Below are positions 4,475-39,043 of a stretch of 64,000 nt of DNA, in pieces; positions within the stretch are counted from its first letter, which is position 1, and each line of letters starts with the position of its first letter. The position numbers and the translations under genes were made by a program. Below the pieces are notes generated by a model that was not told where the DNA came from, searched no databases, and worked only from the letters and a program-made list of their open reading frames with translations. The stretch comes from a bacterium (lineage in GTDB: Bacteria > Patescibacteriota > Minisyncoccia > Phycocordibacterales > UBA9973), in NCBI GenBank assembly GCA_027484965.1, contig JAIXRY010000015.1:1622-65621 (forward strand), written 5' to 3'.

Positions 4475-4861
4475 ATGGACCGTATTGGAGACATGTTAAA
4501 TATGATCAAGCTTGCAGGTAAGGCTAAACACCCTATCGCAACAATCCCGCATTCAAAGCAAAAACTTGCTATTTTAGAATGCTTATTAAAAGCTGGTTAC
4601 ATCGCAGGATTATCTGTTCGTACAGAAAAAGGATTTCCTGTTATTGATGTAACTATTCGTTATGAAAATGATGCACCTCGTATTCACGAAGTTGCTCGTA
4701 TTTCAAAACCATCTCGTCGTTTGTACACTTCATCAAAGGATCTACGTCCTTTCCATGGTGGACACGGATCACAAATTCTCTCAACACCAAAGGGGATTTT
4801 GACAGACAAGGAGGCAAAAAAACAACAGGTCGGAGGTGAAATTCTTCTTAGTATTTGGTAA
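4475..4861 (+). CDS. rpsH: 30S ribosomal protein S8
   Basis: S8 family. The annotated N-terminus may be a few codons long. Confidence 0.88.
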   Translation: MDRIGDMLNMIKLAGKAKHPIATIPHSKQKLAILECLLKAGYIAGLSVRTEKGFPVIDVTIRYENDAPRIHEVARISKPSRRLYTSSKDLRPFHGGHGSQILSTPKGILTDKEAKKQQVGGEILLSIW

Positions 4862-5406
4862 TTTACACATTTATGTCACGTATAGGAAAACAACTCATTC
4901 AAATTCCACAAGGTGTTACAGTAACTATTTCTCCAGACGAAGTAGTTGTTGCAGGACCTCTTGGAACACTCAAGAAAAATACTCTTGATTTGGTAGCTAT
5001 CTCACAACAAGATGGTGTGCTTACATTTACTCCAAGAAAGACAGATAAATTCTCTCGCTCACTTTGGGGAACATATGCTTCACATGTTGAAAATATGATC
5101 CAAGGTGTTGTGACTCCATTCGTTAAAAAACTCATCTTAGAAGGTGTTGGGTTTAAGAGTGAGGTAAAAGGAACAGATCTTCATCTTGCTCTTGGATTTT
5201 CACATCCAGTAGTAGTAGCGATTCCACAAGGACTCACAGTTACTGCAGAAAAGAACAATATTACTGTTACAGGAATCGACAAAGATCTCGTTGGATTTTT
5301 CACGGCTCATGTTCGTTCTTTGAAGAAACCAGAACCTTACAAAGGTAAAGGTTTCCGTTACAGTGATGAAATTATTCGTCGAAAAGCTGGTAAAAAATCT
5401 GCATAG
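4855..5406 (+). CDS. rplF: 50S ribosomal protein L6 (true start probably at 4873, MSRIGK)
   Basis: MSRIGK...Q.P.GV.V tandem L6 domains. Confidence 0.9.
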   Translation: MVIYTFMSRIGKQLIQIPQGVTVTISPDEVVVAGPLGTLKKNTLDLVAISQQDGVLTFTPRKTDKFSRSLWGTYASHVENMIQGVVTPFVKKLILEGVGFKSEVKGTDLHLALGFSHPVVVAIPQGLTVTAEKNNITVTGIDKDLVGFFTAHVRSLKKPEPYKGKGFRYSDEIIRRKAGKKSA

Positions 5407-5421
5407 TCTTAATATACATAT

Positions 5422-5772
5422 ATGAATACATTACAGAAAAAAACAGAAAAACGTCTTCGTCTTAAGAAAAAGATTCGTAGTAAAATCTTTGGTACAGCGG
5501 AACTTCCACGTCTTACAGTGTTCCGTTCTAACATCCACATCTACGCTCAACTTATCGATGACACAAAAGGTAACACTCTTTGCTCATTCTCTGATATGGG
5601 TATAAAAGATGGTACTAAAAAAGATCACGCACTTCTAGTTGGAAAAGGAATCGCAGAAGTAGCAAAAAAGGCAGGTATCACTAGTGTTGTTTTTGACCGT
5701 AACGGTTTTAAATACACAGGTCGTGTAAAAATATTAGCTGATGCAGCCCGAGAGGGAGGACTTACATTTTAA
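5422..5772 (+). CDS. rplR: 50S ribosomal protein L18
   Basis: [18 protein letters not shown]...S...[18 protein letters not shown], typical of L18. Confidence 0.88.
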
Positions 5773-5777
5773 TTTTT

Positions 5778-6398
5778 ATGCCTACACCACAAAAAACAAC
5801 AACAACATCATCATCAAACAGACCAGGTTCACGCGGACCAGGATCTAATGGACCAAGACGTCCAGGTGGAAAAGAAGGAGGTCGCACTTATGCAGATCGC
5901 CCAAAGCCAGAATTTGATCAAAAAATTCTAGATATTCGTCGCGTTACTCGTGTTATGGCAGGAGGTCGTCGTATGACTTTTGCTGTAGCAATGGTTATTG
6001 GTGACAAAAAAGGTTCAGTTGGACTTGGTACTGGTAAAGGAGCTGATACAGCGCTTGCTATTGCGAAAGCTTTGAAGAGTGCTCGTAAAGCAATGATTAC
6101 TATCAAGACAACAAAAGACATGTCTTTGCCTCATGAAATAAAAGCAAAAGAAACAAGTTCACAAGTATTCTTGATGCCTAACAAAGGAAAAGGTCTTGTA
6201 GCTGGTTCTGCTGTTCGTGATATTCTTACACTTGCAGGATTGAAGAATGTTACTGCAAAAATTCATTCAGGAAGTAAAAACCGTTTGAATAATGGTCGTG
6301 CAACAATGAAAGCACTTGCTCTTGTTTCTACAAAAAAGAAACATGGTCTTCCAGAAGCAGTTGCTGTTCCAGAAGTAACTCCTGCAATAGAAAAATAA
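5778..6398 (+). CDS. rpsE: 30S ribosomal protein S5 with a roughly 45-aa Gly/Pro/Arg-rich N-terminal extension
   Basis: Core RV.RV..GGR...FA...V.GD..G.VG.G.GKA is S5. The N-terminal low-complexity tail is extra. Confidence 0.9.
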   Translation: MPTPQKTTTTSSSNRPGSRGPGSNGPRRPGGKEGGRTYADRPKPEFDQKILDIRRVTRVMAGGRRMTFAVAMVIGDKKGSVGLGTGKGADTALAIAKALKSARKAMITIKTTKDMSLPHEIKAKETSSQVFLMPNKGKGLVAGSAVRDILTLAGLKNVTAKIHSGSKNRLNNGRATMKALALVSTKKKHGLPEAVAVPEVTPAIEK

Positions 6399-6865: not shown

Positions 6866-8137
6866 ATGGATACCTTTATTCTTAAACTAAAAAATTTATG
6901 GAACGATTCTCAATTGAGAAATCGTATCATCGTAGTTATATTGATGCTTGTGGTGTTCCGTGCACTTGCTTCAATCCCAGTTCCAGGAGTAGATGTAGGA
7001 CGTCTTTCAGCGCTTCTTGCTAATAATCAATTCTTTGGTGCACTTAACGTATTTTCTGGAGGAGGACTTTCAACTCTTTCTATTCTAATGCTTGGTGTTG
7101 GTCCATATATTACAGCTTCTATCATTATGCAACTTTTGACTATGATGATTCCAAGTCTGAAGTCTATGTATCAAGAAGAAGGTGAGATTGGACGTATAAA
7201 ATTTACTCAATACTCACGCTTCCTTACTATTCCTCTTGCTGCACTTCAAGGATTTTCACTTCTATTGCTTCTTTCAAAGCAAGGAGTGATTCCAGGACTC
7301 GATCAATTTGGATATTTCCTAAGTATCTCTGTTATTGTTGCTGGTTCAATGCTCCTTATGTGGATTGGAGAACTTCTTTCAGAATTCGGTATTGGAAATG
7401 GAATATCACTTCTAATATTCGCTGGTATCGTAGCTTCTGTTCCTACACATATTAGTCAATTACTTTATACATTTGACGCTTCACAAATACCTACACTTCT
7501 AGCGTTTGTGGGTGCAGGTATTCTTGTTATTGCTGGTGTTGTATATATTACAGAAGCAGAAAGATTGATTCCTATTACTTATACAAAACAAGTAAAGGGA
7601 AGCCGTGTGGTTGGTGGAAATTCAACATACCTCCCACTTAAACTTAATCAAGCAGGAGTTATTCCAATAATTTTTGCGCTCTCAATCTTGTTATTTCCAC
7701 AACTCATTGCAACTTTCTTGAGTGGAATGGAAAGTGCTACAGCTCAATCAGTGGCAAGATCTCTTACACTGTTTTTGCAAAGTACATGGTTATACTCTCT
7801 TGTATACTTCATACTCGTAACTCTCTTCACTTACTTCTACACTGCTGTTACTTTTGACCCAGAACAAATGGCTACAAACTTACAAAAGAATGGAGCATTT
7901 ATTCCAGGAATTCGTCCAGGACAATCAACAACAGAGTACCTTACAAAATTAGTTACTAAACTCACTTTTGTAGGAGCTATATTCCTTGGAATCGTAGCGG
8001 TATTGCCACTTATTGTGAGAACACTTACAGGTATTAATTCTGTTGCTCTTGGAGGTACCGCGCTTTTGATTGTTGTCTCTGTTGTTCTTGATTTGATCAA
8101 GCGTACAGATGCACAGCTTTCATTACAAGAATACTAA
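6866..8137 (+). CDS. secY: Preprotein translocase subunit SecY
   Basis: 10-TM protein with the SecY signature. Conserved position after rplO. Confidence 0.92.
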   Translation: MDTFILKLKNLWNDSQLRNRIIVVILMLVVFRALASIPVPGVDVGRLSALLANNQFFGALNVFSGGGLSTLSILMLGVGPYITASIIMQLLTMMIPSLKSMYQEEGEIGRIKFTQYSRFLTIPLAALQGFSLLLLLSKQGVIPGLDQFGYFLSISVIVAGSMLLMWIGELLSEFGIGNGISLLIFAGIVASVPTHISQLLYTFDASQIPTLLAFVGAGILVIAGVVYITEAERLIPITYTKQVKGSRVVGGNSTYLPLKLNQAGVIPIIFALSILLFPQLIATFLSGMESATAQSVARSLTLFLQSTWLYSLVYFILVTLFTYFYTAVTFDPEQMATNLQKNGAFIPGIRPGQSTTEYLTKLVTKLTFVGAIFLGIVAVLPLIVRTLTGINSVALGGTALLIVVSVVLDLIKRTDAQLSLQEY

Positions 8138-8241: not shown

Positions 8242-8844
8242 TTGTATACTTATTTTATGGAACCATACACAATTCTTTTCTTTGGTCGCACAGGAGCAGG
8301 AAAAGGCACTCAAGCTCATCTTCTTCAAGATTACCTAAGAGAGCAAAAAAAGGAAGTTTTATACATAGAAACAGGAGCACGTTTTCGTCTTTTTACGGAA
8401 GAACCTTCCTATACCGCAAAATACACTAAAAAGATTCTTGAAGACGGAGGGCTTTTACCTGATTTTCTTCCTGTTGCACTTTGGGGAAGAATTTTTATGG
8501 AAGAATACAGAGGTGATGAAAACATAATTCTAGATGGACTTGCACGTCGTGAAAATGAAGCAGTTCTTCTTGATTCTGCACTTTCATTTTTTCAAAGAAA
8601 AAACACATATGTTTTAGATATTAATATTTCTAGAGAGTGGGCAGAAAATGTTTTGAAAACAAGAGGGAGAGCAGACGATGATAGTGAAGATATAAAACAT
8701 AAAATGGAGTGGTTTGAACTAAATACTATTCCAGCAATCAATCATTTTAAAAATAATAGTGCTTATACATTTATAGAAATTAATGGCGAGCAAACAATAG
8801 AACAAGTTCATAATGATATTTTAAAAGCATTAAAGATTGTTTAA
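8242..8844 (+). CDS. adk: Adenylate kinase, divergent (start possibly at 8257)
   Basis: P-loop GRTGAGKGTQA, LDGLARR (compare GFPR) and RADDD motifs. Canonical secY-adk-map order. Confidence 0.75.
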   Translation: MYTYFMEPYTILFFGRTGAGKGTQAHLLQDYLREQKKEVLYIETGARFRLFTEEPSYTAKYTKKILEDGGLLPDFLPVALWGRIFMEEYRGDENIILDGLARRENEAVLLDSALSFFQRKNTYVLDINISREWAENVLKTRGRADDDSEDIKHKMEWFELNTIPAINHFKNNSAYTFIEINGEQTIEQVHNDILKALKIV

Positions 8845-9613
8845 TATGGCAGTAATTATTAAAACAAAAGAACAAATAGATATTCTCAGGCAAGGAGGAA
8901 AAAGACTAGCTGAAGTTGTTCACAAGGTATCTCAAAAAGCGTTACCGGGAGTCACTACAGACGAGCTTGATACATACGCATACGAGCTTATTGTCTCTAT
9001 GGGAGATAAGCCTGCTTTTTTGAATTATAAGCCAGAAGGAGCACCTTATGCTTTTCCTAAGACACTTTGCATTTCTGTAAATGATGAAGTTGTTCATGGA
9101 ATACCAGGAGAAAAAGTTTTGAAGAATGGAGATATTGTCTCTATTGATTGTGGAATAAATCATGGAGGACTTTTTACAGATCATGCTGTTACTGTGGTGG
9201 TAGGAGAAACAACAAAAGAATCATACAGACTTATTGAAGCTGCAACATTATCTCTTGAAGCGGGAATAGAAGCTATAGTCCCAGGTGCTCGTATTGGTGA
9301 TATTTCTTCTGCAATAGAAAAGGTTATAAAACCTTATAAGTTTGGAATAATAAAAGAGCTTGCAGGTCATGGTGTGGGTGTAAAAATTCACGAAGATCCA
9401 TACATACCAAATTATGGAAAAGCTGGAACTGGTCTTGTTCTCAAACCAGGAATGGTTATAGCTATAGAGCCTATGATTAATATAGGAAAACAGTCTATAA
9501 CTATTGCACGTGACGGTTGGACTATTAAAACCAAAGACAGATCAAGAAGTGCTCACATGGAACACACTGTACTTATTACAGAGACTGGTGCCGAGATTCT
9601 TACTATGATGTAA
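8837..9613 (+). CDS. map: Methionine aminopeptidase type I
   Basis: Pita-bread metal-ligand pattern (VVHGIPG...D.V.ID.G...HGG..D...T...EPM). Follows adk. Confidence 0.9.
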   Translation: MFNMAVIIKTKEQIDILRQGGKRLAEVVHKVSQKALPGVTTDELDTYAYELIVSMGDKPAFLNYKPEGAPYAFPKTLCISVNDEVVHGIPGEKVLKNGDIVSIDCGINHGGLFTDHAVTVVVGETTKESYRLIEAATLSLEAGIEAIVPGARIGDISSAIEKVIKPYKFGIIKELAGHGVGVKIHEDPYIPNYGKAGTGLVLKPGMVIAIEPMINIGKQSITIARDGWTIKTKDRSRSAHMEHTVLITETGAEILTMM

Positions 9614-9615
9614 AT

Positions 9616-9645
9616 AAAAACCACAAACATATGTTTGTGGTTTTT
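9616..9645 (+). terminator. Rho-independent terminator after map
   Basis: AAAAACCACAAACATATGTTTGTGGTTTTT. Confidence 0.6.
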
Positions 9646-9690
9646 ATTATCACAGAGCATATTAAAATTTGTATGTTAAAATAAATTCAT

Positions 9691-12426
9691 ATGGAACAAT
9701 TTGATATTCCCAATCTCCCTCAATTTAAATCACCAGAAGAAGAGATCGCTTTTCTTCGTGCTCACATAGAAAAGAAAGAGCAAGAATTAAAAGGTAGTAA
9801 TATTGAAAAAGAAGTAATTGCAAAAGAAACTTTAAATACATACAAAGAGATTTCAAAGAATGATGTTTTTCATAAAAAAATAAACATAGAAACTCATGAG
9901 GTAGAATCTCTTGTACTTCGTCTTGCTCCCGAAACCCATGATAATACCATGGAAGAGTTGCTCGGTATTCTCCTTACAAAAGGGATTAAGAATGCGCTCG
10001 ATGTTGTTCATGGATTAAAGAATCCTCACTTAGAAGATGACTTTCATCGCTTCCTTATACAATACCTTTTGAGTACTCACAAAATACCAGGACTTAAAGA
10101 AGGAAACTCTCTTTGGAAATCTCTTTCAAAAGTTCTTTTTGAAGTAACGCTTCCAGATAAAAATCCTAATGATCCAAGAAGTTTTAAGGATATTATTGCG
10201 ACAATGGAGCAGTTCTTTGCTGGGATGCAATATATAGGTGAAGACAAAGAAAATAAAAATAACGATGTGTATACACTCGAAATTGCTACAGCTCACGGTA
10301 ATTCTGATGTGGTGTTTTATGTAGGTGTACCAAGAGAGAAGAGTGAACTTTTTGAAAAGCAATTACTCTCTATCCATCCACTTGCTCGTATTAATGAAAT
10401 TCCAGATGACTACAATATTTTTTCTGAAGGAAATGAAACTTCTTTTGCTGTGGCAGCACTCGAAGAAAATGACGTCTTACCACTTAAGACATACGAGGCT
10501 TTTGATCGTGACCCAATAGAAATTTTTATTAATTCATTTAATAAAGTATCGAGTGTTGGTGAGGGTGCGTGTATTCAATTTGTTATTAGACCTTGTAGCC
10601 AATCAATACTTAAACATTTCTCAACTCTTTTAGAAAAAGCAAAAAAGGGTGAAGATGTAAAAAAAGAAGATACTCCTTTTGGTGATTTTGCAAAAGATTT
10701 TGGTCATGTACTTCTTGAAACTTTTTGGCTTAAAGAAGAAAAAGATAAGAAAGAAGAAGAAAAGAAACCTGAAGCCGATGGTGTTGTGGTTTCTGGTATC
10801 CAAAAGAAATTAGAAAGTACTATTACTAATGTGAATATTCGCATTATTACTTCTTCAAAAACAAAAACACGTTCAGATATGATGCTCTCTGATATAGAAG
10901 CGTCTTTCTCTCAATTTTCATTACCGGGCGGTAATGGACTAAAGTTTATTTATCAAAAAGAAAATAAACTTCATGATTTGCTTGCGGATTTTTCTTTTAG
11001 AAATTATAGCGAAGAAACAACTCTTGCTCTCAATCACAAAGAACTCGCAACTCTTATCCACTTCCCATACGGTATTACGCTTGCTCCTCAACTCAAAACA
11101 GCACGCGCAGGATCTGGTTCTGCACCATCAGACCTTCCACAAGAAGGAGTCTTGCTCGGATACAATATTTATCGTGGTGTTTCTACAGAAGTGCATATTC
11201 TTCCAGAAGACCGTATGCGTCACTTATATGTGATTGGTCAGACAGGTACAGGTAAGACGTCTATTTTGAAGAATCTTATTGCTCAAGATATTGCCCGAGG
11301 TGACGGTGTTTGTTATATCGACCCTCACGGAACAGATATCCAAGATATTCTTTCCTATATTCCAAAAGAACGTGTTGATGACGTGATATATTTTGACCCG
11401 AGTTATATGCCTCGCCCGATGGGTCTCAATATGCTCGAATTTGATGAAAGATTTCCAGAACAAAAGACTTTTGTAGTGAATGATTTGCTTGGAATATTCA
11501 ATCAGCTCTTTGATTTGAAATCGTCTGGTGGGCCAATGTTCGAACAATATTTCAGAAATGCAGCATTCTTGGTAATGGAAGATGTTGAGTCAGGATGCAC
11601 ACTTCTTGAGATTACTCGTGTACTTCAAGACAAAGCTTTTCGTGATTACAAACTTTCAAAATGTAAAAACCCTATAATCAAACAATTCTGGATTGCAGCC
11701 GAATCTTCAAAAGGTGAGCAAGGGCTCGAAAACTTTGTTACATATATCTCAAGTAAATTTGATCCATTTATCTCGAACGATATTATGCGTCCTGTTATAG
11801 GGCAAGAAAAGTCAGCATTCAATTTCCGTGAAATAATGGATAACAAAAAGATTCTATTGGTAAATCTTTCAAAGGGAAGACTTGGTGATATCAATGCGAA
11901 TCTTATCGGTCTTATCTTGGTAGGGAAGCTTCAACAAGCAGCACTTTCTCGTGTTGATATGTTTGGAAAACAGATAAATGACTTCTATCTTTATATAGAT
12001 GAATTCCAAAATGTTACGACGCCTGCAATTTCTTCAATTCTATCTGAAGCTCGTAAATACCGCTTGTCATTAAATGTCGCTCACCAATACATTGCACAGC
12101 TTCCAGAAGATACGAAGAATGCTATCTTTGGAAACGTAGGTTCTATGTGTGTATTCCGTATTTCACCTGATGACGCTGCATATCTTGAGCCAAAATTCGC
12201 CCCAACATTTACAGCAAATGATATAATGAAGCTTGAAAATAGAGTAGCCTATGCTTCAATAATTGTTAATAGAACTCCGACATCAAAACCATTCAATATT
12301 ATTACAGCTGACAATCCAAAAGGAAACAAAAATATAATTGATTCACTAAAAGAGCTTTCTTATATGAAGTTCGGCCGCCCTCGAGAAGAAGTAGATGAGA
12401 TAATAATTAGAAAATACAATAAATAA
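9691..12426 (+). CDS. Large soluble VirD4/TraG/TraD-family (type IV coupling-protein-like) P-loop ATPase. It has a roughly 480-aa uncharacterised N-terminal region and no TM helices.
   Basis: Walker A YVIGQTGTGKTS. Walker B-like LYIDEFQN, then AHQYIAQL, which matches the TraG-D_C / TrwB AAD-binding signature. A charged coiled-coil stretch (KEEKDKKEEEKKPE) lies in the N-terminal part. Confidence 0.6.
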   Translation: MEQFDIPNLPQFKSPEEEIAFLRAHIEKKEQELKGSNIEKEVIAKETLNTYKEISKNDVFHKKINIETHEVESLVLRLAPETHDNTMEELLGILLTKGIKNALDVVHGLKNPHLEDDFHRFLIQYLLSTHKIPGLKEGNSLWKSLSKVLFEVTLPDKNPNDPRSFKDIIATMEQFFAGMQYIGEDKENKNNDVYTLEIATAHGNSDVVFYVGVPREKSELFEKQLLSIHPLARINEIPDDYNIFSEGNETSFAVAALEENDVLPLKTYEAFDRDPIEIFINSFNKVSSVGEGACIQFVIRPCSQSILKHFSTLLEKAKKGEDVKKEDTPFGDFAKDFGHVLLETFWLKEEKDKKEEEKKPEADGVVVSGIQKKLESTITNVNIRIITSSKTKTRSDMMLSDIEASFSQFSLPGGNGLKFIYQKENKLHDLLADFSFRNYSEETTLALNHKELATLIHFPYGITLAPQLKTARAGSGSAPSDLPQEGVLLGYNIYRGVSTEVHILPEDRMRHLYVIGQTGTGKTSILKNLIAQDIARGDGVCYIDPHGTDIQDILSYIPKERVDDVIYFDPSYMPRPMGLNMLEFDERFPEQKTFVVNDLLGIFNQLFDLKSSGGPMFEQYFRNAAFLVMEDVESGCTLLEITRVLQDKAFRDYKLSKCKNPIIKQFWIAAESSKGEQGLENFVTYISSKFDPFISNDIMRPVIGQEKSAFNFREIMDNKKILLVNLSKGRLGDINANLIGLILVGKLQQAALSRVDMFGKQINDFYLYIDEFQNVTTPAISSILSEARKYRLSLNVAHQYIAQLPEDTKNAIFGNVGSMCVFRISPDDAAYLEPKFAPTFTANDIMKLENRVAYASIIVNRTPTSKPFNIITADNPKGNKNIIDSLKELSYMKFGRPREEVDEIIIRKYNK

Positions 12427-13837: not shown

Positions 13838-15202
13838 ATGGAACAAAAAGAATTAAAAATAACTTTCTGCTCTGGAGCAGGAAGTGTTACAGGTGCAAAC
13901 TTTTTATTGGAAGGAGAAGGTAAGAAATTTCTAGTGGACTGCGGTCTTGAGCAGGGAACAAGTGTTGCCGATCAAACAAACTGGTCTTCATTTTTATACA
14001 ATCCGAGTGAAATAGATATTCTTTTTATTACTCACGCTCATATCGATCATATCGGCCGCATCCCAAAACTAATCCAAGAAGGTTTTAAAGGAAGAATTAT
14101 TTCTACAGATGCGACTCATGAACTCGCACGTCCAATGCTCGAGGATACTATTCGTATCTTGGCTCATGAAGAAGACTTGGCAATTCACGAGATGTATACA
14201 GAAAAGAATCTTGAAAGAGCTCTCGAACTTTGGGAAGGAATTCCTTATCATCAAAATATTAATATTGATCATGGTTTCAAAATGCAATTTCTTGATTCAG
14301 GACATATTTTAGGTTCTGCAATGCTTGAGATTATTTACAATGGAAAAAAGATTGTATTCACTGGTGACCTAGGTAATTCACCTTCACCACTTTTGCGTGA
14401 TACAGAAAAATTGTCTGGTGTAGACTATTTAATCATGGAATCTGTTTATGGTGATAGAAATCACGTAGATCGTGATGTTAGAAGAAAGAGATTAGAGGCT
14501 GTTATTGAGGATAATTATGGAAGACAAGGAGTTTTGGTTATTCCGACATTTTCACTTGAGAGAAGTCAGGAGCTTCTTTATGAATTAAATGATTTTGTAG
14601 AGAATAAACGTATTCCTCAAATGCCTATTTTCTTTGATTCACCACTTGCTATTAGGCTTACTTCTGTTTACAAAAAATTCAGTCATTATTTTAATGAAGA
14701 AGCACAACAAACAGTAAATAGTGGAGATGATATATTTGCATTCCCAGGAATGAAATCAACACCAGAAACAGAAGATTCAAAAGCTATCCTCCATAGTTCA
14801 AACCCTAAGATTATTATCGCAGGTTCTGGAATGTCTAATGGTGGAAGAGTTCTTCATCATGAGAAGAATTATTTACCAGACCCAAACAATACTATTCTCC
14901 TTACTGGCTATCAAGCCTACGGGACTCTAGGACGCCATATTATGGAAGGTGCGGACGAAGTGAAGATAAATGGCGAGATAGTGCCTATAAGAGCCAAAAT
15001 AGAACAAATAGACGGGTACTCAGGTCACAAGGACTCAGATCATTTGATAGAATTTGTAGAACAAACAGCTGACTCTCTCAAACAAGTTTATGTTGTAATG
15101 GGCGAACCAAAATCTTCTCTATTTTTAGTCCAACGTCTTCGTGATTATCTTGGAGTCGATGCACAAGCACCAAGTCAGGGCGACAGTATTATTATTTCGT
15201 GA
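13838..15202 (+). CDS. Beta-CASP family MBL-fold ribonuclease (RNase J / CPSF-like)
   Basis: HAHIDHIG metal motif, GHILGSA beta-CASP motif, 454 aa. Ends with a TGA stop. Confidence 0.75.
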   Translation: MEQKELKITFCSGAGSVTGANFLLEGEGKKFLVDCGLEQGTSVADQTNWSSFLYNPSEIDILFITHAHIDHIGRIPKLIQEGFKGRIISTDATHELARPMLEDTIRILAHEEDLAIHEMYTEKNLERALELWEGIPYHQNINIDHGFKMQFLDSGHILGSAMLEIIYNGKKIVFTGDLGNSPSPLLRDTEKLSGVDYLIMESVYGDRNHVDRDVRRKRLEAVIEDNYGRQGVLVIPTFSLERSQELLYELNDFVENKRIPQMPIFFDSPLAIRLTSVYKKFSHYFNEEAQQTVNSGDDIFAFPGMKSTPETEDSKAILHSSNPKIIIAGSGMSNGGRVLHHEKNYLPDPNNTILLTGYQAYGTLGRHIMEGADEVKINGEIVPIRAKIEQIDGYSGHKDSDHLIEFVEQTADSLKQVYVVMGEPKSSLFLVQRLRDYLGVDAQAPSQGDSIIIS

Positions 15203-15214
15203 TAAACTTTCTCT

Positions 15215-15863
15215 TATGGAAGATACAAAAAAAGAAAAAGGAGAACATTTAATTTGTTATAACGGGCCGATAGGTAATGGTGACAAACATAACCATCTTA
15301 AAATTAAGATTGGAGTTTCTGGTGCTGCTGAAACAGGGCAATGTGGGCTTCATGTACTTGATCAAGCAAAAGAAGTTGGTAGAGAAATTATAAAGCAAGG
15401 AGGTATTGTGGTTACTGGAGCTACGAGTGGATTCCCACTCTGGGCTTCAATAGGCGCTAAAGACGAAAGAGGGCTAGTTATTGGACTTTCACCCGCATCG
15501 AATGAACACGAACATATTACAGCGTACAGACTACCTCTTGATTATACTGATTTGATTATATATACAGGTTTTGGTTTTCCAGGTAGAGATTTGCTCTTCA
15601 CACGAAGTTGTGACGCTCTCATCGTAGGGTGTGGCCGTGTAGGTACTATTCATGAGTTCACTATTGCTTTCGAAGATAATAAACCAATCGGTATTTTAGA
15701 AGGAGAGTGGGCAACAGATGAAATTCTTAGAGAGATTATGGAAAAGGGAAATAGAACAAGTGATAAAGTTATATTTGATTCTGATCCAAAAAAGCTAGTA
15801 GAAAGAGTTATGGCTTTGGTTATAAAAGATAAAGATAAAGAATTCACTCCTATAGCACAGTAA
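15215..15863 (+). CDS. TIGR00725 / LOG-SLOG family Rossmann-fold nucleotide-binding protein (ORF track start 15141 overlaps the upstream gene; ATG 15215 preferred)
   Basis: IGVSGAAE...GG.VVTGATSGFPLWASIGAKDERGLVIGLSP matches the LOG/TIGR00725 glycine-rich pattern. Confidence 0.5.
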
Positions 15864-21961: not shown

Positions 21962-24900
21962 ATGCAGAGTGGCTACACCAAAAACTTACGCGCATTTTTG
22001 CGGAAGAACAGCATCATTTTGTCGCTGGTATTTTTTGCTTTGTTTGGTACTGGTGTAAGTCTTTTTGCTGCTGCTCCAGATACTGAGCCATATCAACCAG
22101 GAGAGACTCTTGACCCCACATGTATTCCAGGTTCTTCAGTAAACTGTACAGTTCGAATATTACCTTCTCAAATTGGTAATGCTGGTAAATTTTTGACTAC
22201 AAACGGAACAACAACATCTTGGGCTTCAGTTCTCACTTCTCCATCTTTTTCTGATGTTACCCTTACAGGTAACACTACATTTCCATCCCTTTCAACTGCT
22301 GGGGGAATATTATACACAGATGGTTCTGGCGTTCTTGCTCAGTCTGCTGCAGGTATTGCTGGCCAAGCAGTTATTTCTGGGGGCGCTACTGGTCCAACAT
22401 ATTTTGCTCCAACATTAGGTTCAATACTTTTTGCTGGAACATCTGGAATTCTTTCTGAAAATAATTCAAATTTCTTTTGGGATAATACGAACAACAGACT
22501 AGGTCTTGGTACAAATACTCCAGTAACATTACTTAATATCGGGACAGGTACACCTACAACAGCTTCTAGTGGAATTCAGTTTGGTACAGATGTGCTTGCA
22601 AACCTATATCGTAACGATACAGGGAATATTAAAACAGATGGTGTTTTGAATGTGGGCGACCAATTGAACGTGGGGAACAGTTTAGATCTTACAGGTAATC
22701 TCTATTCTAGAGGCGATCTAAGACTTTTGAATAAAGCTGAAAATGGTTGGATTAGTTTTGCTACTCGCAACACTGCTGGACCAGAAGCTCTATATGACTT
22801 ATCAAATATTGGAACATTGTTTGCTAACCAAATTAATTCTTCTGGAACTATTAGTGCAACACTACCTTCAGGCTCATTTGGTACTATCGCTTCTTTTGGA
22901 GCAAATGGTGCTGCTGGTCTTATAAATATCGGATATGAAGATGGTAGTGGAATTAGTAGTATTACCGGCTCTGGTTTCGGACCTTTCCAAGTCGCTTCAT
23001 CTGCGAATAATAATATTATTATCAATCCAGGTAGTGGTAATGTGGGAATCGGAGCAGTGAGTCCTACTCAAAAATTGGAGGTGAATGGAAATATATTGGT
23101 AGGTGGCAGTAATGCATATTTGTATTTTAGAGATGAATATAATTACATTAAAAATGCTGATGGATTACCTGTAGATGTAAAAGGTCATCATGGAGTGCGC
23201 GCATACAATGATCTTGGGGAAGTTGCACGTTTTGGTACAGCGAGTGATTCTTTGAATTCTTACTTTAATGGAAATGTCGGTATTGGTTCTGTTACACCTT
23301 CCGCAAGACTTGAAGTTAAATCAGAATTAAATACAGACAGTGTTATTGCTATTAATACAAATTCTGTAGATTTTGATTCATACCTTTCACTTCAAGAAGC
23401 TGGTGTTGAAAAATGGAAATTCCGCAATCAAGGTGATAGTGGAGATAAGCTTCGTATTGGAAGTGCTACAAACCCTCTAGCAATTTCTGTTTCTCAAATG
23501 GGACAAATAAGTTTGGGTTCAACAACAGCTAGTGCTTGGTTGTATCTTCCAGCAAGTACTGGAGCTGGTCAAACTGCGCCACTTAAATTCACAGCAGGGA
23601 CAAATATTATATCTCCAGAAACAGGTGCTGTAGAATATGATGGTACTCAGCTATTTTTTACTCCAGCTTCTACTCGTAATATTTTGGCGCAAGTGTCAGG
23701 ATCTACAGCTCTTACTTCAGGATCTATTCCTTTTGCAACAACTTCAGGATATCTCACACAAGATAATTCAAATTTCTTCTGGGACGATACTAATAACAGA
23801 TTAGGTATTGGTACAGCGAGTCCAGCAACAGCATTGGATGTAAATGGTGTTGTTAAAGCCTCATTTCTAAGAGCAGATTATTTAAATACAACAAATAATG
23901 GAGCAACTATTATAGGTAATTTTACAAGTGAAAACCGTATTTATGACCAAGCTGGTACATGGTTAATGACTTTAAAATCAGGTAACGTCGGTATTGGTAC
24001 AACTAATCCAGGTTATAGATTAGATATTCTAGGTTCTAGTACGTCTGGTGTCTCTGCTTCAACTCAAATTCTCGGTGGAACAGGAACAAGTGCTGGTGGT
24101 CTTAGATTAGGTGCTTGGAGTGCTTCATACGGAGGATTTTGGTCTGCGAGTGTAATACCTTCATCTACTAACTATGCTCTTATTTCAAATGGTGCTGATA
24201 CAGCATTAAACACTACTTCAACTGGAGGAATTTATATAAACAATAGTACACAAGCTTTAGGGTGGAATATTAACGGAGTTTCAATCGGAGCAGCCGCTAC
24301 TAGTCAAGGACAGCTTGCTGTTATAAATCAAAATAATTCTCGTGTAGCTCTTGTAGTAAGAGCTACCACTTCTCAAACCGCAAATCTTACACAATGGCAA
24401 GATAATACAGGTGTTGTATTGGCTAGAATAGCTTCTAATGGTGCATTAAGTGTAGGTACAACTAACACCTCTGACCTGTATGGTGATTGGGGAGGTGCTG
24501 CTGAAATTCCAGCTGGTGCAGCCAATAGTTCTTCTAATGGTGGAATGTCTCTTTTTGCTGGGGGCACTACTCCTGGAACGAATAAAGCGGGTATTTACTA
24601 TTATCAAGGGGGTACACAATGGCGTTCAGCTGCAGAAGTTTCTAACACAACAAGCGGTTTTGGAAACCTTTTGCTTATGAAGTCTGGCGGTAACGTTGGT
24701 ATTGGTACAACAAGTCCAACCGCAAGACTAAATATTGTTGGAAATATTTTAGGACAAAGCTCTCTAACAGATGCAACAGCTAAAGACTTTTCTATAACTA
24801 CTGGACATCATACAAATTCAGAAGAATCTTTAGCGATGATTTCTGGTATTTCAAATGCTACACAAAATATTATATATTTAGGAGGTGGAAGTTCTTCTAA

Positions 24901-27900
24901 TAATACAGCTACTGATGTTCGTTTCTTTACAGCTGCAAACAACACAACAACTACAGGGACAGAAAGAATGAGAATATTATCAAATGGTAATGTCGGTATT
25001 GGAACAACAAATCCAGGATTCCCATTAGAAGTAGCGTCTAGTGGTACCAATGATACTGCAAGATTTTATGGGAATAGTGGTACAGCTCTTGTGTATGTTG
25101 GAGTAAACGGAACACTGGCTAGTGTAAGTGGTCAGTATAGAATTTATGCAAATAGTGGTATTCCTCTAACTCTAGGTGCTAACGGTATTCATAGTCAAAT
25201 GTTTATAAGTACTGCAGGCAATGTCGGTATAGGAACTACAAGTCCAGTAGGAAAACTAGATGTATCTGCTGGTCTTGGTTCTCAAACAGCTGGAGATTTT
25301 GTTGTAGATACTGCAAATAATATCGTGTATGTTGGTAAACTCGATAGTGTTTCAGGTAATACAAACTTTATCTTTAGAGATAGGTTGGGTGGTGTGAAAT
25401 CACGTTGGGAAAACGCAGGTTCTGGAAGTATTGGATTTTCTAATTTTAGTAACGGCTTTGGTGTAAGTATCGGTCCAACAATATCAGGTTCTATAGGGTC
25501 TATTGGAACAATGCTGTTAGTTCAAAATGCGAATGCTGGTTCTACTAATCCAACAGCGATATTTAGACAAGGCACAACTCAAACAGGTGACTTAATGCAA
25601 TGGCAAAATAGCGCAGGAACTGTTCTTGCTGAAATAGATGTTAATGGTTCTATGATAAACGACTCACTTTTCAGTCTTACTCATAATGCAACATCAAGAA
25701 CAGCAGTTGAAATTACAAAATCAAACGATGATGGTATATTAAATATTTATCGTGATGGTTCTATTGATACAAAAATTCAAGGTAATGGTAATTCATACTT
25801 TGCAAGTCTTAGTGGTGCTTTTGTAGGTATTGGTACTTCAAGTCCTTCTTATCCTCTTGATGTTACCGTTCCTACATCTGGTAGTTTTGCTCAAAGAATT
25901 ACTCGAAACACAGCAGCAACAACAAACTTTAATTCAACAAACATTCTAGTTTCAAGATCAACAGGAGACGCTGCTGACGGATTTGGAGGAGGTTCTGTAT
26001 ATGCTCTATCAGACAACACAGTAGGAGATACATTTCTGGGTTCTGTTGGTGCTGTGAGGGACGGCGCTGATAATTCTGGCGCTTTGGTTTTTAATACATA
26101 TATAACTGGTAGTTTCAATGAAAGAATGAGAATTACTTCATCAGGTCTTGTGTCTATTGGTGTAAACTCTGGTATAGCTCGATTGGGGGTAGTGAATGCT
26201 AATGCTGGAGGTGTTGCTATGATTGTAAGAGGAGCAGCTTCACAGTCTGCAAACTTAGTTCAATTTCAAGACGCTACTGGTACTGTTTTAAGTCGTGTAG
26301 CAGCGGATGGAAGTCTCCTTGTGAGAGAAGATTATACAACAGGTGCTGCTGTTTTAATGACATTTGCTGGAAATAGAGCTACTTATGGTATTGACTCTAA
26401 TTCAGATTTTTATATTGATACATCTGCTGCTAGAGGTACAGCAATAAAATCAGGTGGTGTAACAACATTGTATACATCATCTAATTCTACAGGAAACAAT
26501 ATAACTATTGGTTCAAATACTTCTATTGCTAAGTTTGGAGTTATAAACTCTAATGCTAGTACTGTTGCTTCTGTAATTCGTGGTACTACTTCTCAATCAG
26601 CAGATTTAACACAATGGCAAGATAACTCGGCTACAGTTTTAGGCGCAATTAAATCTAGTGGCGCAATGGTTATTGGTAATAGTGGTGCTCAAATTGGGTC
26701 TGTACCGCTCTCTGTTGTTGGTTCAGGGACAGATGCTTATATAGCAATGAAACCAGTAGGACAATCAGGATTTGGTTTTACCTTTGGTACACCTTCTGCA
26801 CAAAACTCTGAATTATGGAATTACGGAACTGGATTTATGCGTTTTGCAACAAACAATGCAGAATATATGAGAATTGTCTCAACTGGGGATGTAGGTGTCG
26901 GTACATCTACCCCTCTTACAGTAAACGGTATTTCTGTTGCAGGCGAGAGAGTATTAAATGTAAACGGTTCTGGTGGTACAAGACTCGCAGTACAGAGTGC
27001 GTCAGGTTCTAGTTTGGACTTCGTAAATACTGGAAACTCTACAAATGCAAAATGGGCATTATTCCAAAATCTTTCAAATAACTTCATTATTAAGTCTCAC
27101 ACTGACGCAGGTTCTACTCGCTTTACTTTCTTAACTGCTGATTTGACTACTGGCAATCTTACTGTGGGAAATTCTGGAATGGCAAAAACTTTGTCTTTAC
27201 AATCTGACAGAGCTAATATTATTGTAAGAGGTTCTACAGACGGAGGGACAGGTCCATTTATAGATTATGATATAAACTCAAGCTCTACAGCAGGTACTAC
27301 TTTTGCTCGTATTTCAAATGGTACACTGTCTGGCGCTACTTCAGGAACAAATATTGCTGTGGCGATGTCTCCAACATTTAATCCAGCTGCAGGAACAGGT
27401 GTGTTTAGAACTCTTGATATAAACTACACCACCAATGCAAGTGGCGCTCAAGGTGGTTCAATGACTGGGCTTCGTGTGAATAGAAATGTTCAAGGTGGCT
27501 CTACTGCATTTACTACAGACATGCTTGCAGATTTCCAAGCAGGAGGTCTCTCTCAATTTTCTGTGAGAGCTGATGGTGTAGTTACTATTGGGTCGTCTGG
27601 ATATTTAGTAACTCCAACAATATTTTCTGGTGGAGGAGGAACAACAGCGTTTGGTAATAGAGTATTGGTCGGTACTACTGGAACCACTACTGCACAACTA
27701 GAAACTAGGGCTGCATCTGCAACTACTGTTCCTTTGTTTGTAAGAGGTGCGTCTTCACAAACAGCAGACCTTCAGCAATGGCAAAGTAGCGACAGTACAA
27801 GATTGTTGTCAGTAAATAGTGCTGGTAATATCGTTATGCAAGCCACTTCAGACAAATACATATATGGTGGACCTGCAAGTGGAAACTATATCAATATGTA

Positions 27901-30094: not shown

Positions 30095-30688
30095 ATGAAA
30101 AAAGGTTTTACCCTTCTCGAGCTCCTCATTGTTATAGCAATCATAGGAGTACTCTCATCTATAGTTCTTGTAAGTTTGGGTAATTCCCGCGCAAAAGCCG
30201 ATACTGCTTTTGTAAAACAACAAGCAGATCAGATTAAAAAACAAATGGAATTATATTATCAACAATATGGTAATTATGGTTATTATGCTACCAACATGAA
30301 TATTCGTGGTGGGTATCAACCAGCAGGATATGCAGGATACGTCAATTTTCCAGGTGGCGCAGGGGATTGCTACGCCCCCTTTGCAAGACAAACTGTATCT
30401 GATACTCCGGGGACAATTAGTTATCAGATTGCTTTGATGGTTGGTAAAGCAATGCAAAAAACAAGTGATAATGTATTTTGGTGTTATATTTCACCAGACC
30501 AACAATCATACGCTTTTGCTTTTGTTGGTATGAAGACTGGTCCTAATACTTATTGTATTGATTCTAGTGGTAATGTTAAGGAGTCTAATACTGCAAATCT
30601 AACAACTCCTATAGGAAGCGTCATTGGTGGAACTTTGCAACGAGTTACGAATGCTGCATTACTAACTTCACCTGTGTCTTGTTTGTAA
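30095..30688 (+). CDS. Type IV pilin-like protein (prepilin, class III signal)
   Basis: MKKGFTLLELLIVIAIIGVL, with G|FTLLE at the prepilin peptidase site and Glu5. Confidence 0.85.
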   Translation: MKKGFTLLELLIVIAIIGVLSSIVLVSLGNSRAKADTAFVKQQADQIKKQMELYYQQYGNYGYYATNMNIRGGYQPAGYAGYVNFPGGAGDCYAPFARQTVSDTPGTISYQIALMVGKAMQKTSDNVFWCYISPDQQSYAFAFVGMKTGPNTYCIDSSGNVKESNTANLTTPIGSVIGGTLQRVTNAALLTSPVSCL

Positions 30689-30760
30689 TTTAAACCTATA
30701 CACTCTGGGTATGCGGACATTAATTAAAAAACCTCCTTTTGTGGAGGTTTTTTAATTAAT

Positions 30761-30779
30761 GTCCGCCCTCTTGGATTCG
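30761..30779. repeat. 19-bp direct repeat of the tRNA-Ile(TAT) 3' end (att-like scar). The partner is at 32412-32430.
   Basis: GTCCGCCCTCTTGGATTCG is identical at both positions. The upstream copy is embedded in a long palindrome (30713-30768). Confidence 0.6.
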
Positions 30780-31428
30780 CCCGCGACTAATTAGTTTGCA
30801 AACTAATTGTCTGGGCACCAGCTCGTCTATTTTTCTGCTGAAAAATATGACTCCGCTGTTCGAAACCAAACGTACATGAAGCAGTTTATGTACTTAGGGC
30901 GAACCCTCGTTTCACTCGTGTCCACTCTGAATATTCTACTTCGAACCAAATTGAATGTGGATTCAAGTTTTTATCTGTTGAAATAGAGAAAATTAGAAGT
31001 GAACTAAAATCATTAAATTCATTATTAGTTATTGATGAGGATAATCGTTAGGTATTATTGATATTTTCCATTACTTTTGGAGTGAACAATCATCCAAATA
31101 AAGAATTGGTTAGGTTTCGATATGAAACACAATTAAACTCATAAATAAAAATAATTCAATTTTTGGTTAATGTTAAATTAGTTGTGCTTATAATTTTCAT
31201 AACACCCTAGTTGAATTTGGGCTAACTAAATTATATTTAAATATATTGACTTTATAAAAAAAGTAGAGATAAATCTGGTTAATTGTTTTGGTGTTGGCAG
31301 TTTTGATTATACTTTCGATTTTGAAGGTTTAAAAACAAATTCATTATTGAAAATACTGCAATTATTTTGTGGCTTTTTTAATTTCAATAAAATAAAAAAA
31401 GACACAACTAAAAGTCATGTCTTATATA

Positions 31429-32007: not shown

Positions 32008-32409
32008 ATTGTAAATGCTTGATTTACAACAGCATACACCTTTAACTACTTAGTGTCAATAATAAATTACCTATTACAATAGTAGAGAGAAATAATTCAT
32101 ATAAAAATCAGTCTTTATTTTAAGGTGAAATAATTTGTCCAGGTAGGTCAAAAAAGTTGAGTATTATTACCTTAAAAGTACAGCAAAAAACTATCACAAA
32201 ATTTTTGTCATAAATTGTGGTATTTGTTATAACAGAAATAAGTAATAACCTAAATAAGACTTTATCTAAATTTATCAAGTTTGTTGTTATAAAGATACAG
32301 TGGTTCGAATTTCCTGAAGGAATAGTCTTTGATGGAAACAAATTTTGAACCAACAAAATATGCAGTATTTTTAAGGTAAATGAGTTATTTTACGCAATTG
32401 ATTCCAAAA

Positions 32410-39037: not shown

Positions 39038-39043
39038 TATATT

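Follow-up and report, generated by a model that had tools for sequence, protein, structure and literature searches.

What does an ATPase related to conjugative coupling proteins do among the housekeeping genes of a patescibacterial chromosome? In the window, by which we mean the whole 64-kb stretch of DNA analysed here, such a protein of 911 amino acids is encoded directly behind secY, adk and map. A large share of bacterial diversity belongs to the Patescibacteria, whose members are reduced epibionts. In the one genetically tractable species of this group the secretion system of type IV (T4SS) is essential, and no coupling protein or relaxase was recognised in its T4SS gene cluster (PMC10633639). 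A highly conserved motor of the type IV coupling protein (T4CP) type that lacks an anchor, carries a VirB4-like docking domain and occurs in hundreds of species is a concrete candidate for the ATPase that should feed substrate and is missing so far. If not, it clearly exemplifies how a conjugation motor can be put to housekeeping use.

Domain architecture of the 911-aa protein

The features to which we refer below are the following:

6866-8137: SecY, upstream neighbour
8242-8844: Adk, upstream neighbour
8837-9613, + strand: map (methionine aminopeptidase), upstream neighbour (Peptidase_M24, 8e-47)
9613-9648, + strand: perfect 16-bp hairpin with U-run (RNA fold), likely the intrinsic terminator of the spc operon
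9691-12426, + strand: complete gene of the soluble 911-aa protein with DUF8128 and a T4CP-like P-loop ATPase, a single long ORF
9691-10095, + strand: all-helical N-terminal head of the ~910-aa Paceibacteria subfamily, aa 1-135 (AF2 helices H15-32 through H112-127)
10108-11100, + strand: DUF8128 core with a predicted alpha/beta fold like that of the VirB4 N-terminal domain, aa ~140-470
10666-10773, + strand: charged low-complexity loop (KEEKDKKEEEKK), aa 326-361 (pLDDT 30-38 in both models)
11146-12315, + strand: RecA-like nucleotide-binding domain of the HerA/VirB4/VirD4 group, aa 486-875
11236-11262, + strand: Walker A GQTGTGKTS, aa 516-524, which aligns with the TrwB Walker A GATGTGKS
11455-11784, + strand: all-alpha insertion of seven helices that separates Walker A from Walker B, aa 589-698 (AF2 helices H589-607 through H692-698)
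11989-12012, + strand: Walker B LYIDEFQN, aa 767-774, with D770 and E771 invariant
12046-12102, + strand: EARKYR, aa 786-791, a candidate for the arginine finger, and AHQYIAQL, aa 797-804, with the sensor glutamine; both contain invariant residues
12481-12996, + strand: ndk, downstream neighbour (NDK, 5e-38)

The gene begins with ATG, it is the only long ORF at its position, and the start codon is backed by the homologues, in which M1 and E2 each reach a conservation of at least 90%. Since 1,337 homologues were found at E<=1e-5, the gene is real and not a chance reading frame. The best 120 of these homologues matched over the full length with about 1,170 bits or more, and the proteins among the matches listed have about 910 aa and are 58-93% identical. 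In Patescibacteria the family is large, with more than 1,300 matches of about 58-60% identity, and spans at least 577 species genomes, and its N-terminal domain is common to 973 representative clusters. Databases name its members either "DUF8128 domain-containing" protein, as UniRef does, or "type IV secretion system DNA-binding domain-containing" protein. The precomputed Pfam annotation of the exact protein comprises DUF8128 (PF26449, E<=1e-5), TrwB_AAD_bind and TraG-D_C, and PF26449 is likewise annotated on nearly all homologues among the matches listed. The ~480 N-terminal residues, which the preliminary description had called unassigned, therefore belong to DUF8128 by precomputed annotation alone; our local Pfam copy gave no PF26449 match, and the segments aa 1-140 and aa 136-480, when searched locally with Pfam and NCBIfam models, returned no match even at E<=10.

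The protein consists of three modules, namely a helical head of 135 aa, a DUF8128 domain resembling the VirB4 N-terminal domain and a P-loop domain. All structures considered here are AF2 predictions with a mean pLDDT of about 75. Within the head the alignment showed an invariant PExHD motif (aa 80-84) together with H113, D117, F118, R120 and F121, and no local Pfam model matched this segment even at E<=10. Homologues of 689-823 aa, as well as phrog_5156, align only from about aa 136-149 onwards. Two identities were considered for the head and rejected. The pattern PExHD ... H ... DD is reminiscent of HD phosphohydrolases, but hhalign against the HD-domain protein of the window itself gave a probability of 0.1%. 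Besides, TALE-repeat proteins were the PDB sequences matched by the head profile, at E about 1e-8 but without any single stretch that was significant by itself, and we take this match as an artefact of weak matches summed across many repeats.

The predicted structure of the DUF8128 region has the VirB4-type N-terminal domain fold, which the preliminary description did not mention. Therefore, the overall protein looks like a VirB4-type architecture with a T4CP-type motor. The family itself is already catalogued under a Pfam DUF number, and the VirB4-like front half is the new observation. A "charged coiled-coil" had been proposed for the N-terminal part, a detail that does not stand; this stretch corresponds to KEEKDKKEEEKK at aa 348-359, inside the loop of aa 326-361, whose low pLDDT is accompanied by the weakest conservation of all segments (mean top-residue frequency 0.58, 13% gaps).

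The C-terminal half carries the Walker A, Walker B and sensor glutamine of an FtsK-HerA-type P-loop nucleotide-binding domain, and the three motifs quoted in the preliminary description (GQTGTGKTS, LYIDEFQN and AHQYIAQL) were all confirmed in the translation. In 46 aligned sequences, G516, Q517, T518, G519, G521 and K522 of the Walker A motif are invariant, as are E786, A787, R788, K789, Y790, A797, H798, Q799, Y800 and I801 further downstream. We infer from family membership, not from an alignment, that EARKYR and AHQYIAQL may be equated with the TrwB motifs GRKAGLR and VAGLQS. The seven-helix insertion is the best-conserved segment of the protein (0.89) and sits in the AF2 model where TrwB has its all-alpha domain, TrwB being aligned across 362-440 residues; on the predicted structure only, the protein thus has the all-alpha domain of T4CPs. 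As had been claimed, an N-terminal transmembrane (TM) anchor is missing. The highest Kyte-Doolittle mean over 19-residue segments was 1.23, located within the ATPase domain, compared with the usual threshold of 1.6 for a TM helix.

Relatives among conjugation, plasmid and phage ATPases

At the sequence level the closest relatives of the ATPase core are the type IV coupling proteins, in agreement with the preliminary description. Pfam TrwB_AAD_bind (30.6 bits, cut-off 20.5) and TraG-D_C (26 bits, cut-off 22) matched above their cut-offs, each over just 47-62 residues confined to the Walker A and Walker B regions, and the best PDB sequence matches were TrwB and DotL. The PF02534 match is weak in homologues, and every NCBIfam equivalog stayed far under its cut-off, with 19-39 bits for the TraD and CD1115 equivalogs against cut-offs of 250-650. 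The protein shares with coupling proteins (VirD4/TrwB/TraG/TraD; PF10412, PF12696, PF02534) the layout of Walker A, Walker B and sensor Gln as well as the all-alpha insertion in the nucleotide-binding domain. It differs from them in that it lacks N-terminal TM helices, has about 480 extra N-terminal residues, is encoded by a chromosomal core gene away from relaxase and T4SS genes, and is matched by their models over short stretches only, the equivalogs missing by hundreds of bits. In Foldseek the best full-length matches were TrwK/VirB4 (TrwK, E 9e-14), and the TM-score against TrwB, normalised to the target, was 0.62-0.64; HerA, VirB4 and VirD4 are not told apart by this comparison of a predicted structure.

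Searches for the marks of other motor families were negative. For HerA, we found no N-terminal HAS-barrel, no DUF87 model above threshold and no NurA partner; for FtsK/SpoIIIE, including TcpA-type coupling proteins, neither the FtsK_SpoIIIE model nor a TM domain or gamma domain was found. PADLOC reported a generic P-loop match to MADS mad8 (4e-12) and weak HerA matches, and no defence-system context around the gene. The coupling protein TraJ of pIP501 is not known to have a VirB4-like N-terminal domain. TraJ is comparable in that it acts in monoderm conjugation and is thought to reach the membrane via another protein, its putative anchor being TraI, but it belongs to a plasmid tra operon (PMC13037476). 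CedB and CedD of the Sulfolobales likewise combine VirB4-NTD-like domains with HerA/VirB4-like ATPases in a T4SS-like machine without relaxase (PMC11868833). However, they are archaeal, usually TM-anchored, and each contains the VirB4 N-terminal domain only in part; the CedD equivalog NF053655 scored 18.7 bits against a cut-off of 600, and the archaeal Ced context is absent. What the two have in common with our protein is the general architecture only.

Homologues outside the phylum were found on plasmids of Bacillaceae, where they are named "DUF87 domain-containing" proteins. These proteins resemble ours in DUF8128 and ATPase homology and in length (883-913 aa), but they are just about 22-25% identical, lack the 135-aa patescibacterial head and have genes for a replication-relaxation protein and a Tcp-like T4SS next to their own. 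On the Bacillus subtilis plasmid NRS6116_2, the 913-aa homologue (WP_144625398.1) was matched by hhalign with a probability of 99.7% and E 8e-26 over query aa 216-896, and it also has no TM helix (maximum Kyte-Doolittle value 0.96). It is followed in gene order by a "replication-relaxation family protein", TcpC, TcpD, TcpE and an AAA_10 VirB4-like ATPase, and the same module is carried by a Shouchella clausii plasmid (WP_248290882.1). The Bacillaceae homologues thus occupy the coupling-protein slot of Tcp-like conjugation modules, beside a relaxase-like gene; we found no characterised function for them in the literature. The DUF8128 plus ATPase architecture also occurs in phrog_5156 (E 9e-74, aa 149-907), in gp156 of Bacillus phage G (hhalign probability 99.8%) and in "VirD4 component-like" proteins of SPO1-like phages, such as a 906-aa protein of SP8 (98.6%). 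These proteins differ in being viral and only about 22% identical, and gp156 additionally has one strongly hydrophobic segment (KD 2.28) and is paired with the VirB-like ATPase gp155. A viral origin of the patescibacterial gene was considered and rejected, as an IMG/VR scan gave just two distant matches. The TM-less plasmid proteins and the large Bacillus phages would offer tractable systems for studying the role of the DUF8128 architecture.

Within the phylum, Quinonero-Coronel et al. reported in 2025 that 2,918 of 3,035 Patescibacteria genomes contain VirD4-type homologues, 5,713 in total, of which just 148 lie near virB4; VirB4 itself was present in 2,417 genomes and relaxases were nearly absent (PMC12102498). 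The authors considered exaptation of these T4CP homologues possible. The protein studied here belongs to the same phylum and annotation class and is likewise far from virB4 and perhaps exapted, whereas the earlier study did not split the homologues by architecture and is silent on DUF8128, on an N-terminal domain like that of VirB4, on the lack of TM helices and on the synteny with map and ndk (PMC12102498). Accordingly, no new category is opened here, as T4CP homologues far from virB4 have been published for this phylum and the family has its Pfam number.

Chromosomal neighbourhood

The preliminary description placed the gene in the slot that the alpha operon would occupy. The gene does directly follow secY-adk-map, and no alpha-operon genes were seen among the ORFs scanned in the window, all but the shortest; the slot has no evident functional meaning, given the terminator-like hairpin and the other contexts of divergent homologues. 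This hairpin lies directly 3' of the stop codon of map (dG -19.2 kcal/mol, z -6.1, equalled by 0 of 200 shuffles) and was found by direct folding, as a simple terminator scan did not flag it. Therefore, the 911-aa gene is probably a separate transcription unit. The terminator scan showed no terminator-like site in the 54-66 nt up to ndk, and co-transcription with ndk is possible. Beyond ndk follow a small membrane protein, a beta-CASP RNase, a SLOG protein and, on the minus strand, rplT/infC.

The order map, 911-aa-type gene, ndk, beta-CASP RNase recurs in Patescibacteria amid housekeeping genes. In 43 of 61 informative loci the 4 kb upstream contain a map gene of the same strand, and ndk lies downstream in 37 of 51, with varying genes between the homologue and ndk. 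Dozens of species-level genomes keep this map-linked position, with about 50-60% identity, and the GC content of the gene matches its surroundings. Relaxase or T4SS genes were found neither in the window nor in the flanks of 80 related loci; virB3, virB6 and virB8 are absent from the flanks, and no second T4CP-like or VirB4 gene was found in the window.

Possible roles of the motor

Our preferred explanation, of moderate confidence, is that the protein is a cytoplasmic translocase driven by ATP and presumably assembled as a ring, and that it belongs to the VirB4/VirD4 branch of the FtsK-HerA superfamily, i.e. a TM-less DUF8128-type relative of T4CPs that is inherited vertically as a core gene of Paceibacteria (Nomurabacteria-like). 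In short, we regard it as a domesticated, anchorless T4CP variant. It would form a hexamer in which ATP hydrolysis pushes a polymer, either DNA or unfolded protein, toward a membrane channel. Docking on a membrane partner would occur through the VirB4-like N-terminal domain, not through TM helices of its own; it might be a VirB3/VirB8-like protein or, in the way suggested for TraJ, an anchor that resembles TraI. The most likely partner machine would be the chromosomal, relaxase-less T4SS encoded elsewhere in the genome, and the place after map may simply reflect a lineage-specific gene order with no functional tie to ribosomal genes. Several observations count against this explanation, namely the missing physical linkage to a T4SS in the window and the 80 related loci, the Bacillus phages that hold homologues and have no T4SS, the confinement of T4CP-model matches to the Walker regions and the failure of the fold to separate HerA, VirB4 and VirD4. 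Moreover, T4CP homologues occur in more genomes than VirB4, and in S. epibionticum the t4cp homologue, which may or may not be of the DUF8128 type, is dispensable while the T4SS is essential (PMC12102498).

It is possible, though we rate it as rather doubtful, that the protein was exapted from a coupling protein into a nucleic-acid motor that works alone in the cytoplasm, in the manner of HerA/FtsK and independently of the T4SS, and that serves some housekeeping process on DNA or RNA, for example repair, segregation or the processing of imported DNA for nucleotide salvage. The phage homologues, the wide spread of T4CP homologues seldom near VirB4 and the exaptation allowed by their authors are consistent with such a role. 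The same holds for the neighbours, which in many species include nucleotide-metabolism genes (adk, pyrH, ndk, CYTH, HD, beta-CASP nuclease), and for more divergent homologues in other housekeeping contexts, e.g. after nusA-ppa-tig-clpP. Nevertheless, the N-terminal domain is specifically VirB4-NTD-like, a module known from T4SS and Ced membrane machines, and neither a HAS-barrel nor a NurA-like partner was found. Gene order does not equal an operon either, given the probable terminator after map and the variable genes before ndk, and the nearest contexts outside Patescibacteria are conjugation modules. More speculative, and in our view unlikely, is an early capture by Paceibacteria of a coupling protein with a VirB4-like docking domain instead of an anchor, which became a near-universal housekeeping motor without plasmid export and either feeds imported or host-derived nucleic acid into salvage or energises the essential relaxase-less T4SS used on hosts. 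If this were true, the placement beside the nucleotide-metabolism genes named above would mark a real nucleic-acid-scavenging module.

Following the preliminary description, the protein could drive a machine for DNA uptake or competence together with the "nearby pilins" of the region, a role that we judge improbable. An uptake role for such ATPases has a precedent, as CedB and CedD, which are VirB4-NTD-like, are needed for import and not for export (PMC11868833), and Patescibacteria lack de novo nucleotide synthesis (PMC10633639). The window does contain five N_methyl pilin-like ORFs (30095-34792), but these lie 17.7-22 kb downstream, separated from the gene by 10 or more unrelated genes of both strands that include ndk, an RNase, rplT, infC, truB, smpB, ftsH and a 2,696-aa ORF. 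Pilin-like genes occur within +/-10 kb of a homologue in just 4 of 80 related loci, and neither comEC nor pilB nor pilC was seen in any annotated flank. The low CedD score argues in the same direction, and loss of comEC did not affect the viability of S. epibionticum (review PMC12857230).

That the protein is the VirB4 of the organism's own T4SS, mislabelled as a coupling protein, is highly improbable in spite of the TrwK/VirB4 matches in Foldseek. Unlike VirB4/TrwK (R388; PDB 7o42, 8rtd), it is matched by T4CP models and by none of the VirB4 sequence models (PF03135 CagE_TrbE_VirB, PF12846 AAA_10, PF19044 P-loop_TraG, TIGR00929-type) at E<=0.01, whereas AAA_10 as a positive control matched the plasmid VirB4-like protein at 8e-85. 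Its motor also has the seven-helix insert resembling the TrwB all-alpha domain, and proteins of this type coexist with a genuine VirB4 in related genomes as well as in the plasmid modules. In GCA_000991405.1, the genome with the related locus L019, a separate VirB4 adjoins VirB3 and VirB2 elsewhere in the genome (Table S3, PMC12102498). The t4cp1 match KKP96999.1 in the same table (87% profile coverage) is plausibly the L019 orthologue, as equated by CDS index only and not by accession match (PMC12102498).

A restriction-modification and serine-recombinase island is located at about 40-50 kb of the window. The T4CP-type Pfam matches and this island, 28 kb from the gene, might speak for a common conjugative coupling protein brought in by the recent integration of a plasmid or ICE segment. 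This reading is effectively refuted because the chromosomal synteny is conserved across dozens of species, and the missing anchor, the flanks free of relaxase and T4SS genes, the neighbour-like GC content and the lack of close viral copies likewise count against it, in agreement with the preliminary description, which had leaned away from classical conjugation.

The ATPase gene and its chromosomal surroundings

The sole long reading frame at 9691-12426 (+) is the ATPase gene, whose 911-aa product bears three ATPase motifs.

Sequence motifs of the ATPase protein
aa 516-524: GQTGTGKTS
aa 767-774: LYIDEFQN
aa 797-804: AHQYIAQL

The peak 19-residue hydropathy of the protein is 1.23 and lies within the ATPase domain; therefore, it has no transmembrane (TM) helix. 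On its 5' side the gene is preceded by the S10/spc ribosomal genes and then secY, adk and map. On the 3' side it is followed by ndk, a small membrane protein, a beta-CASP RNase and a SLOG protein, beyond which lie rplT, rpmI and infC (minus strand) and then truB, smpB and ftsH. None of the ORFs scanned across the 64-kb window is an alpha-operon gene. The single reading frame, the motifs, the hydropathy, the gene order and the lack of an alpha-operon ORF thus bear out the preliminary description, which had placed a soluble, anchorless ATPase behind secY-adk-map with no alpha operon following.

Directly 3' of the map stop codon, a perfect palindromic hairpin of 16 bp with A- and U-runs on either side is found at 9613-9648 (dG -19.2 kcal/mol, z -6.1). 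This is probably the end of the spc operon, and the hairpin could terminate transcription in both directions. The ATPase gene probably forms a separate transcription unit, possibly shared with ndk; a terminator scan found no terminator-like site between the two. Three independent Logan contigs bearing the ATPase gene begin 72 nt 5' of it, inside the hairpin.

In related genomes, map precedes the gene by at most 4 kb on the same strand in 43 of the 61 loci with enough upstream sequence, and downstream of the ATPase gene ndk is found in 37/51 and the beta-CASP RNase in 39/51 loci. The map-unlinked copies (18 loci) are more divergent, with a median best-HSP identity of 51.6% vs 56.1% in linked ones. 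The only unlinked context that is fully annotated is a housekeeping one too (L082; nusA, ppa, tig, clpP). The GC content of the region is unremarkable, and close relatives of the protein are essentially absent from viral contigs. Together with the kept chromosomal gene order, this rules out a mobile-element remnant; the gene is inherited vertically on the chromosome, and its gene order is specific to the lineage. The position after map is part of this order, and we rejected the idea of a functional stand-in for the alpha operon.

Several genes vary around this core. In 12 related loci, members of a family of unannotated paralogous proteins of 560-585 aa are inserted between adk/pyrH and map (e.g. 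L001 5753-9195; L047 1226-4706 and 7319-9022); they showed neither a Pfam match nor a TM-like segment and are absent from the window. Just upstream, L047 carries two extra paralogues resembling type IV coupling proteins (T4CPs), namely a soluble 496-aa protein with the ATPase domain only (4786-6276; 32% identical to query aa 507-907) and a fragment at the contig end (10-1209). From one to three CYTH-domain genes, together with an HD-domain gene, lie around ndk, between the ATPase gene and the RNase, in L001 (12732-15761) and L002 (12736-15191), and are missing there in the window. With adk, pyrH and ndk they form a nucleotide-metabolism-rich neighbourhood in related genomes. The beta-CASP RNase of the window (13838-15202, +) has the type VII CRISPR Cas14 model as its best NCBIfam match (410 bits, under the cut-off of 800) and is also similar to aCPSF1; its homologues bear the Anti-Pycsar Apyc1 Pfam label. 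The SLOG/LDcluster4 gene (15141-15863, +) overlaps it by about 60 nt, and the pair is kept downstream of the ATPase gene in most related loci.

Family and domain anatomy

Among 5.8 billion proteins searched, 1,337 matched the ATPase protein. The best 120 of these are all 906-945 aa long with 57-93% identity across the full length, and their named sources are Nomurabacteria, Paceibacterota or Patescibacteria. NCBI names of homologues include "TraM recognition domain-containing protein" and "hypothetical protein", and one UniRef name is "DUF8128 domain-containing protein"; the precomputed Pfam labels are PF26449 (DUF8128), which covers the N-terminal part, PF10412 and PF12696, often with PF02534. 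With each GTDB species represented by one genome, at least 577 genomes carry a relative, and the N-terminal 480 aa alone match 973 clusters at the 50% identity level. Among these clusters are shorter homologues of 689-823 aa, from Roizmanbacteria and Minisyncoccia, without the first ~135 residues. Column identity averages 75% over 46 aligned family members and all catalytic residues are invariant; the P-loop motor is intact and strongly constrained, with its full catalytic motif set. AlphaFold2 models were built from this 46-sequence alignment (pLDDT 74.5 at full length; pLDDT 76.5 and pTM 0.71 for the N-terminal 480 aa).

Domains of the ATPase protein predicted by AlphaFold2
aa 1-135: helical head of six helices, with invariant PExHD (aa 80-84) and H113/D117/F118/R120/F121
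aa ~140-470: alpha/beta domain interrupted by a charged loop
aa 486-875: RecA-like domain
aa 589-698: seven-helix insertion between Walker A and Walker B

The C-terminal half matches Pfam TrwB_AAD_bind and TraG-D_C, both above gathering thresholds, as the VirD4/TraG-like assignment made at first reading had anticipated. NCBIfam gave partial TraD and VirD4 matches with every equivalog score far under its cut-off, and the best PDB sequence matches are TrwB and DotL. Each match covers only the Walker A or the Walker B neighbourhood. Only T4CP-type models match, and at the sequence level they appear to single out this type. In the models, the N-terminal domain is predicted to be of VirB4 type, and the all-alpha insert, which has the highest conservation of any segment (0.89), would occupy the position of the substrate- and DNA-facing domain of TrwB. 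No Pfam match was found for the head at aa 1-135; an HD domain was dismissed as no similarity to one was found, and a TALE-repeat match is regarded as a repeat-summing artefact. The "charged coiled-coil" described earlier (KEEKDKKEEEKK) did not hold up: it sits in the aa 326-361 loop (pLDDT 30-38), in the least conserved, gap-containing part of the alignment.

Plasmid and phage relatives and the proposed role

A tblastn search of PLSDB gave matches in 236 plasmids, 72 of them from Bacillus and 55 from Streptomyces, with others from haloarchaea and Sulfolobus. The B. subtilis plasmid NRS6116_2 encodes a 913-aa TM-less homologue (aligned to query aa 216-896, hhalign probability 99.7%), immediately followed by a "replication-relaxation family protein" and then TcpC, TcpD, TcpE and an 854-aa AAA_10 (VirB4-like) ATPase; a Shouchella clausii plasmid bears the same module. 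From this gene order it follows that the DUF8128-type ATPase takes the expected coupling-protein place in monoderm conjugation modules, beside a separate VirB4. Among phage proteins, phrog_5156 (PHROGs, unknown function) matches query aa 149-907 (E 9e-74), and homology over DUF8128 and the ATPase extends to gp156 of Bacillus phage G (825 aa, hhalign probability 99.8%) and to the 906-aa "VirD4 component-like protein" of the SPO1-like phage SP8 (hhalign probability 98.6%). In jumbo phage G, gp156, misannotated as MsbA-like, is immediately preceded by gp155 (549 aa, VirB4/TraG-P-loop-like ATPase; L083 4258-8400), an adjacent ATPase pair in a phage. In Sulfolobales, the DNA-importing ATPases CedB and CedD have VirB4-NTD-like domains (PMC11868833).

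Quinonero-Coronel et al. (2025, PMC12102498) reported that, of 3,035 Patescibacteria genomes, 2,918 carried VirD4-type T4CP homologues and 2,417 carried VirB4. The T4CP homologues numbered 5,713, only 148 of them near virB4, and relaxases were nearly absent. The t4cp homologue of S. epibionticum was dispensable, and the authors do not exclude exaptation. Their Table S3 lists T4CP hits at CDS 148, 153, 596 and 712 and VirB3, VirB4 and VirB2 at CDS 683-688 of GCA_000991405.1, the genome of our locus L019; judged by position alone, a plausible orthologue of the ATPase gene is CDS 596 (t4cp1, 87% coverage). For one Nomurabacteria genome the same table gives four or more T4CP hits, comparable to the extra paralogues of L047. 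Wang et al. (2023, PMC10633639) described an essential T4SS cluster of S. epibionticum with no recognisable coupling protein or relaxase. DUF8128 is not mentioned in the literature searched. Therefore, the existence of such T4CP-homologue genes is already known, and four features appear to be undescribed: the architecture of a VirB4-like N-terminal domain without TM helices, the subfamily-specific head domain, the map-ndk synteny, and the relationship to phage proteins and to those in the coupling-protein slot of plasmids. The finding was largely foreshadowed by recent literature and database annotation.

Two defining features of T4CPs are missing: the protein has no TM anchor, and its gene is not linked to a relaxase or T4SS. 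We therefore do not class it among the canonical T4CPs; the best description is that of a coupling-protein variant of DUF8128 type that is anchorless and domesticated. We infer that a hexameric ring of the protein would move a polymer with ATP and would dock to a membrane complex via its N-terminal domain, the partner presumably being a chromosomal, relaxase-less T4SS. The N-terminal domain of R388 VirB4 reportedly contacts VirB3 and VirB8 in a published structure. We hold the family and architecture with high confidence, and give about even chances to the whole, a constrained P-loop motor with a VirB4-type N-terminal domain acting as a hexameric translocase docked to such a T4SS. In patescibacterial biology, the protein makes a good candidate for a component that has so far been missing.

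The main rival, a housekeeping nucleic-acid motor independent of any T4SS, seems the less probable account, and finds support in the housekeeping and nucleotide-kinase neighbourhood, a distribution wider than that of VirB4, the phage homologues and the dispensable S. epibionticum gene. The preliminary description had suggested that, with the nearby pilins, the protein may be part of a DNA-uptake or translocation machine; its anchorless T4CP-type core stands, and the link to pilins and competence is improbable, as the pilin-like genes lie 17.7 kb off and such linkage recurs in just 4 of the 80 related loci. VirB4 sequence models did not match the protein, and that it is the organism's VirB4 is very doubtful. 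An ordinary plasmid T4CP is scarcely credible.

Other loci in the window

Downstream of a 2,696-aa ORF (21962-30052, +) lie five type IV pilin-like ORFs (30095-30688 and 32606-34792, +) of 155-197 aa, each with an N_methyl motif and a near-identical N-terminus (KGFTLLELLIVIAIIGVL...); recG is convergent to them (34794-36974). Together, these ORFs may form a pilus or adhesin locus. The region at ~38000-50400, where GC skew is negative from 38 to 46 kb, resembles an integrated island of the restriction-modification or mobile kind. It comprises a minus-strand block of a GNAT acetyltransferase, a SocA/Panacea antitoxin-like protein, a ResIII helicase (763 aa) and an N6/N4 DNA methylase (562 aa), followed on the plus strand by two unassigned ORFs (437 and 406 aa) and a large serine recombinase (551 aa). 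Further nucleotide-salvage genes of the window are a CTP synthase (54205-55866) and, at 62472-63882, a 5'-nucleotidase (NT5C/HAD) adjoining a YfbR-like HD 5'-deoxynucleotidase.
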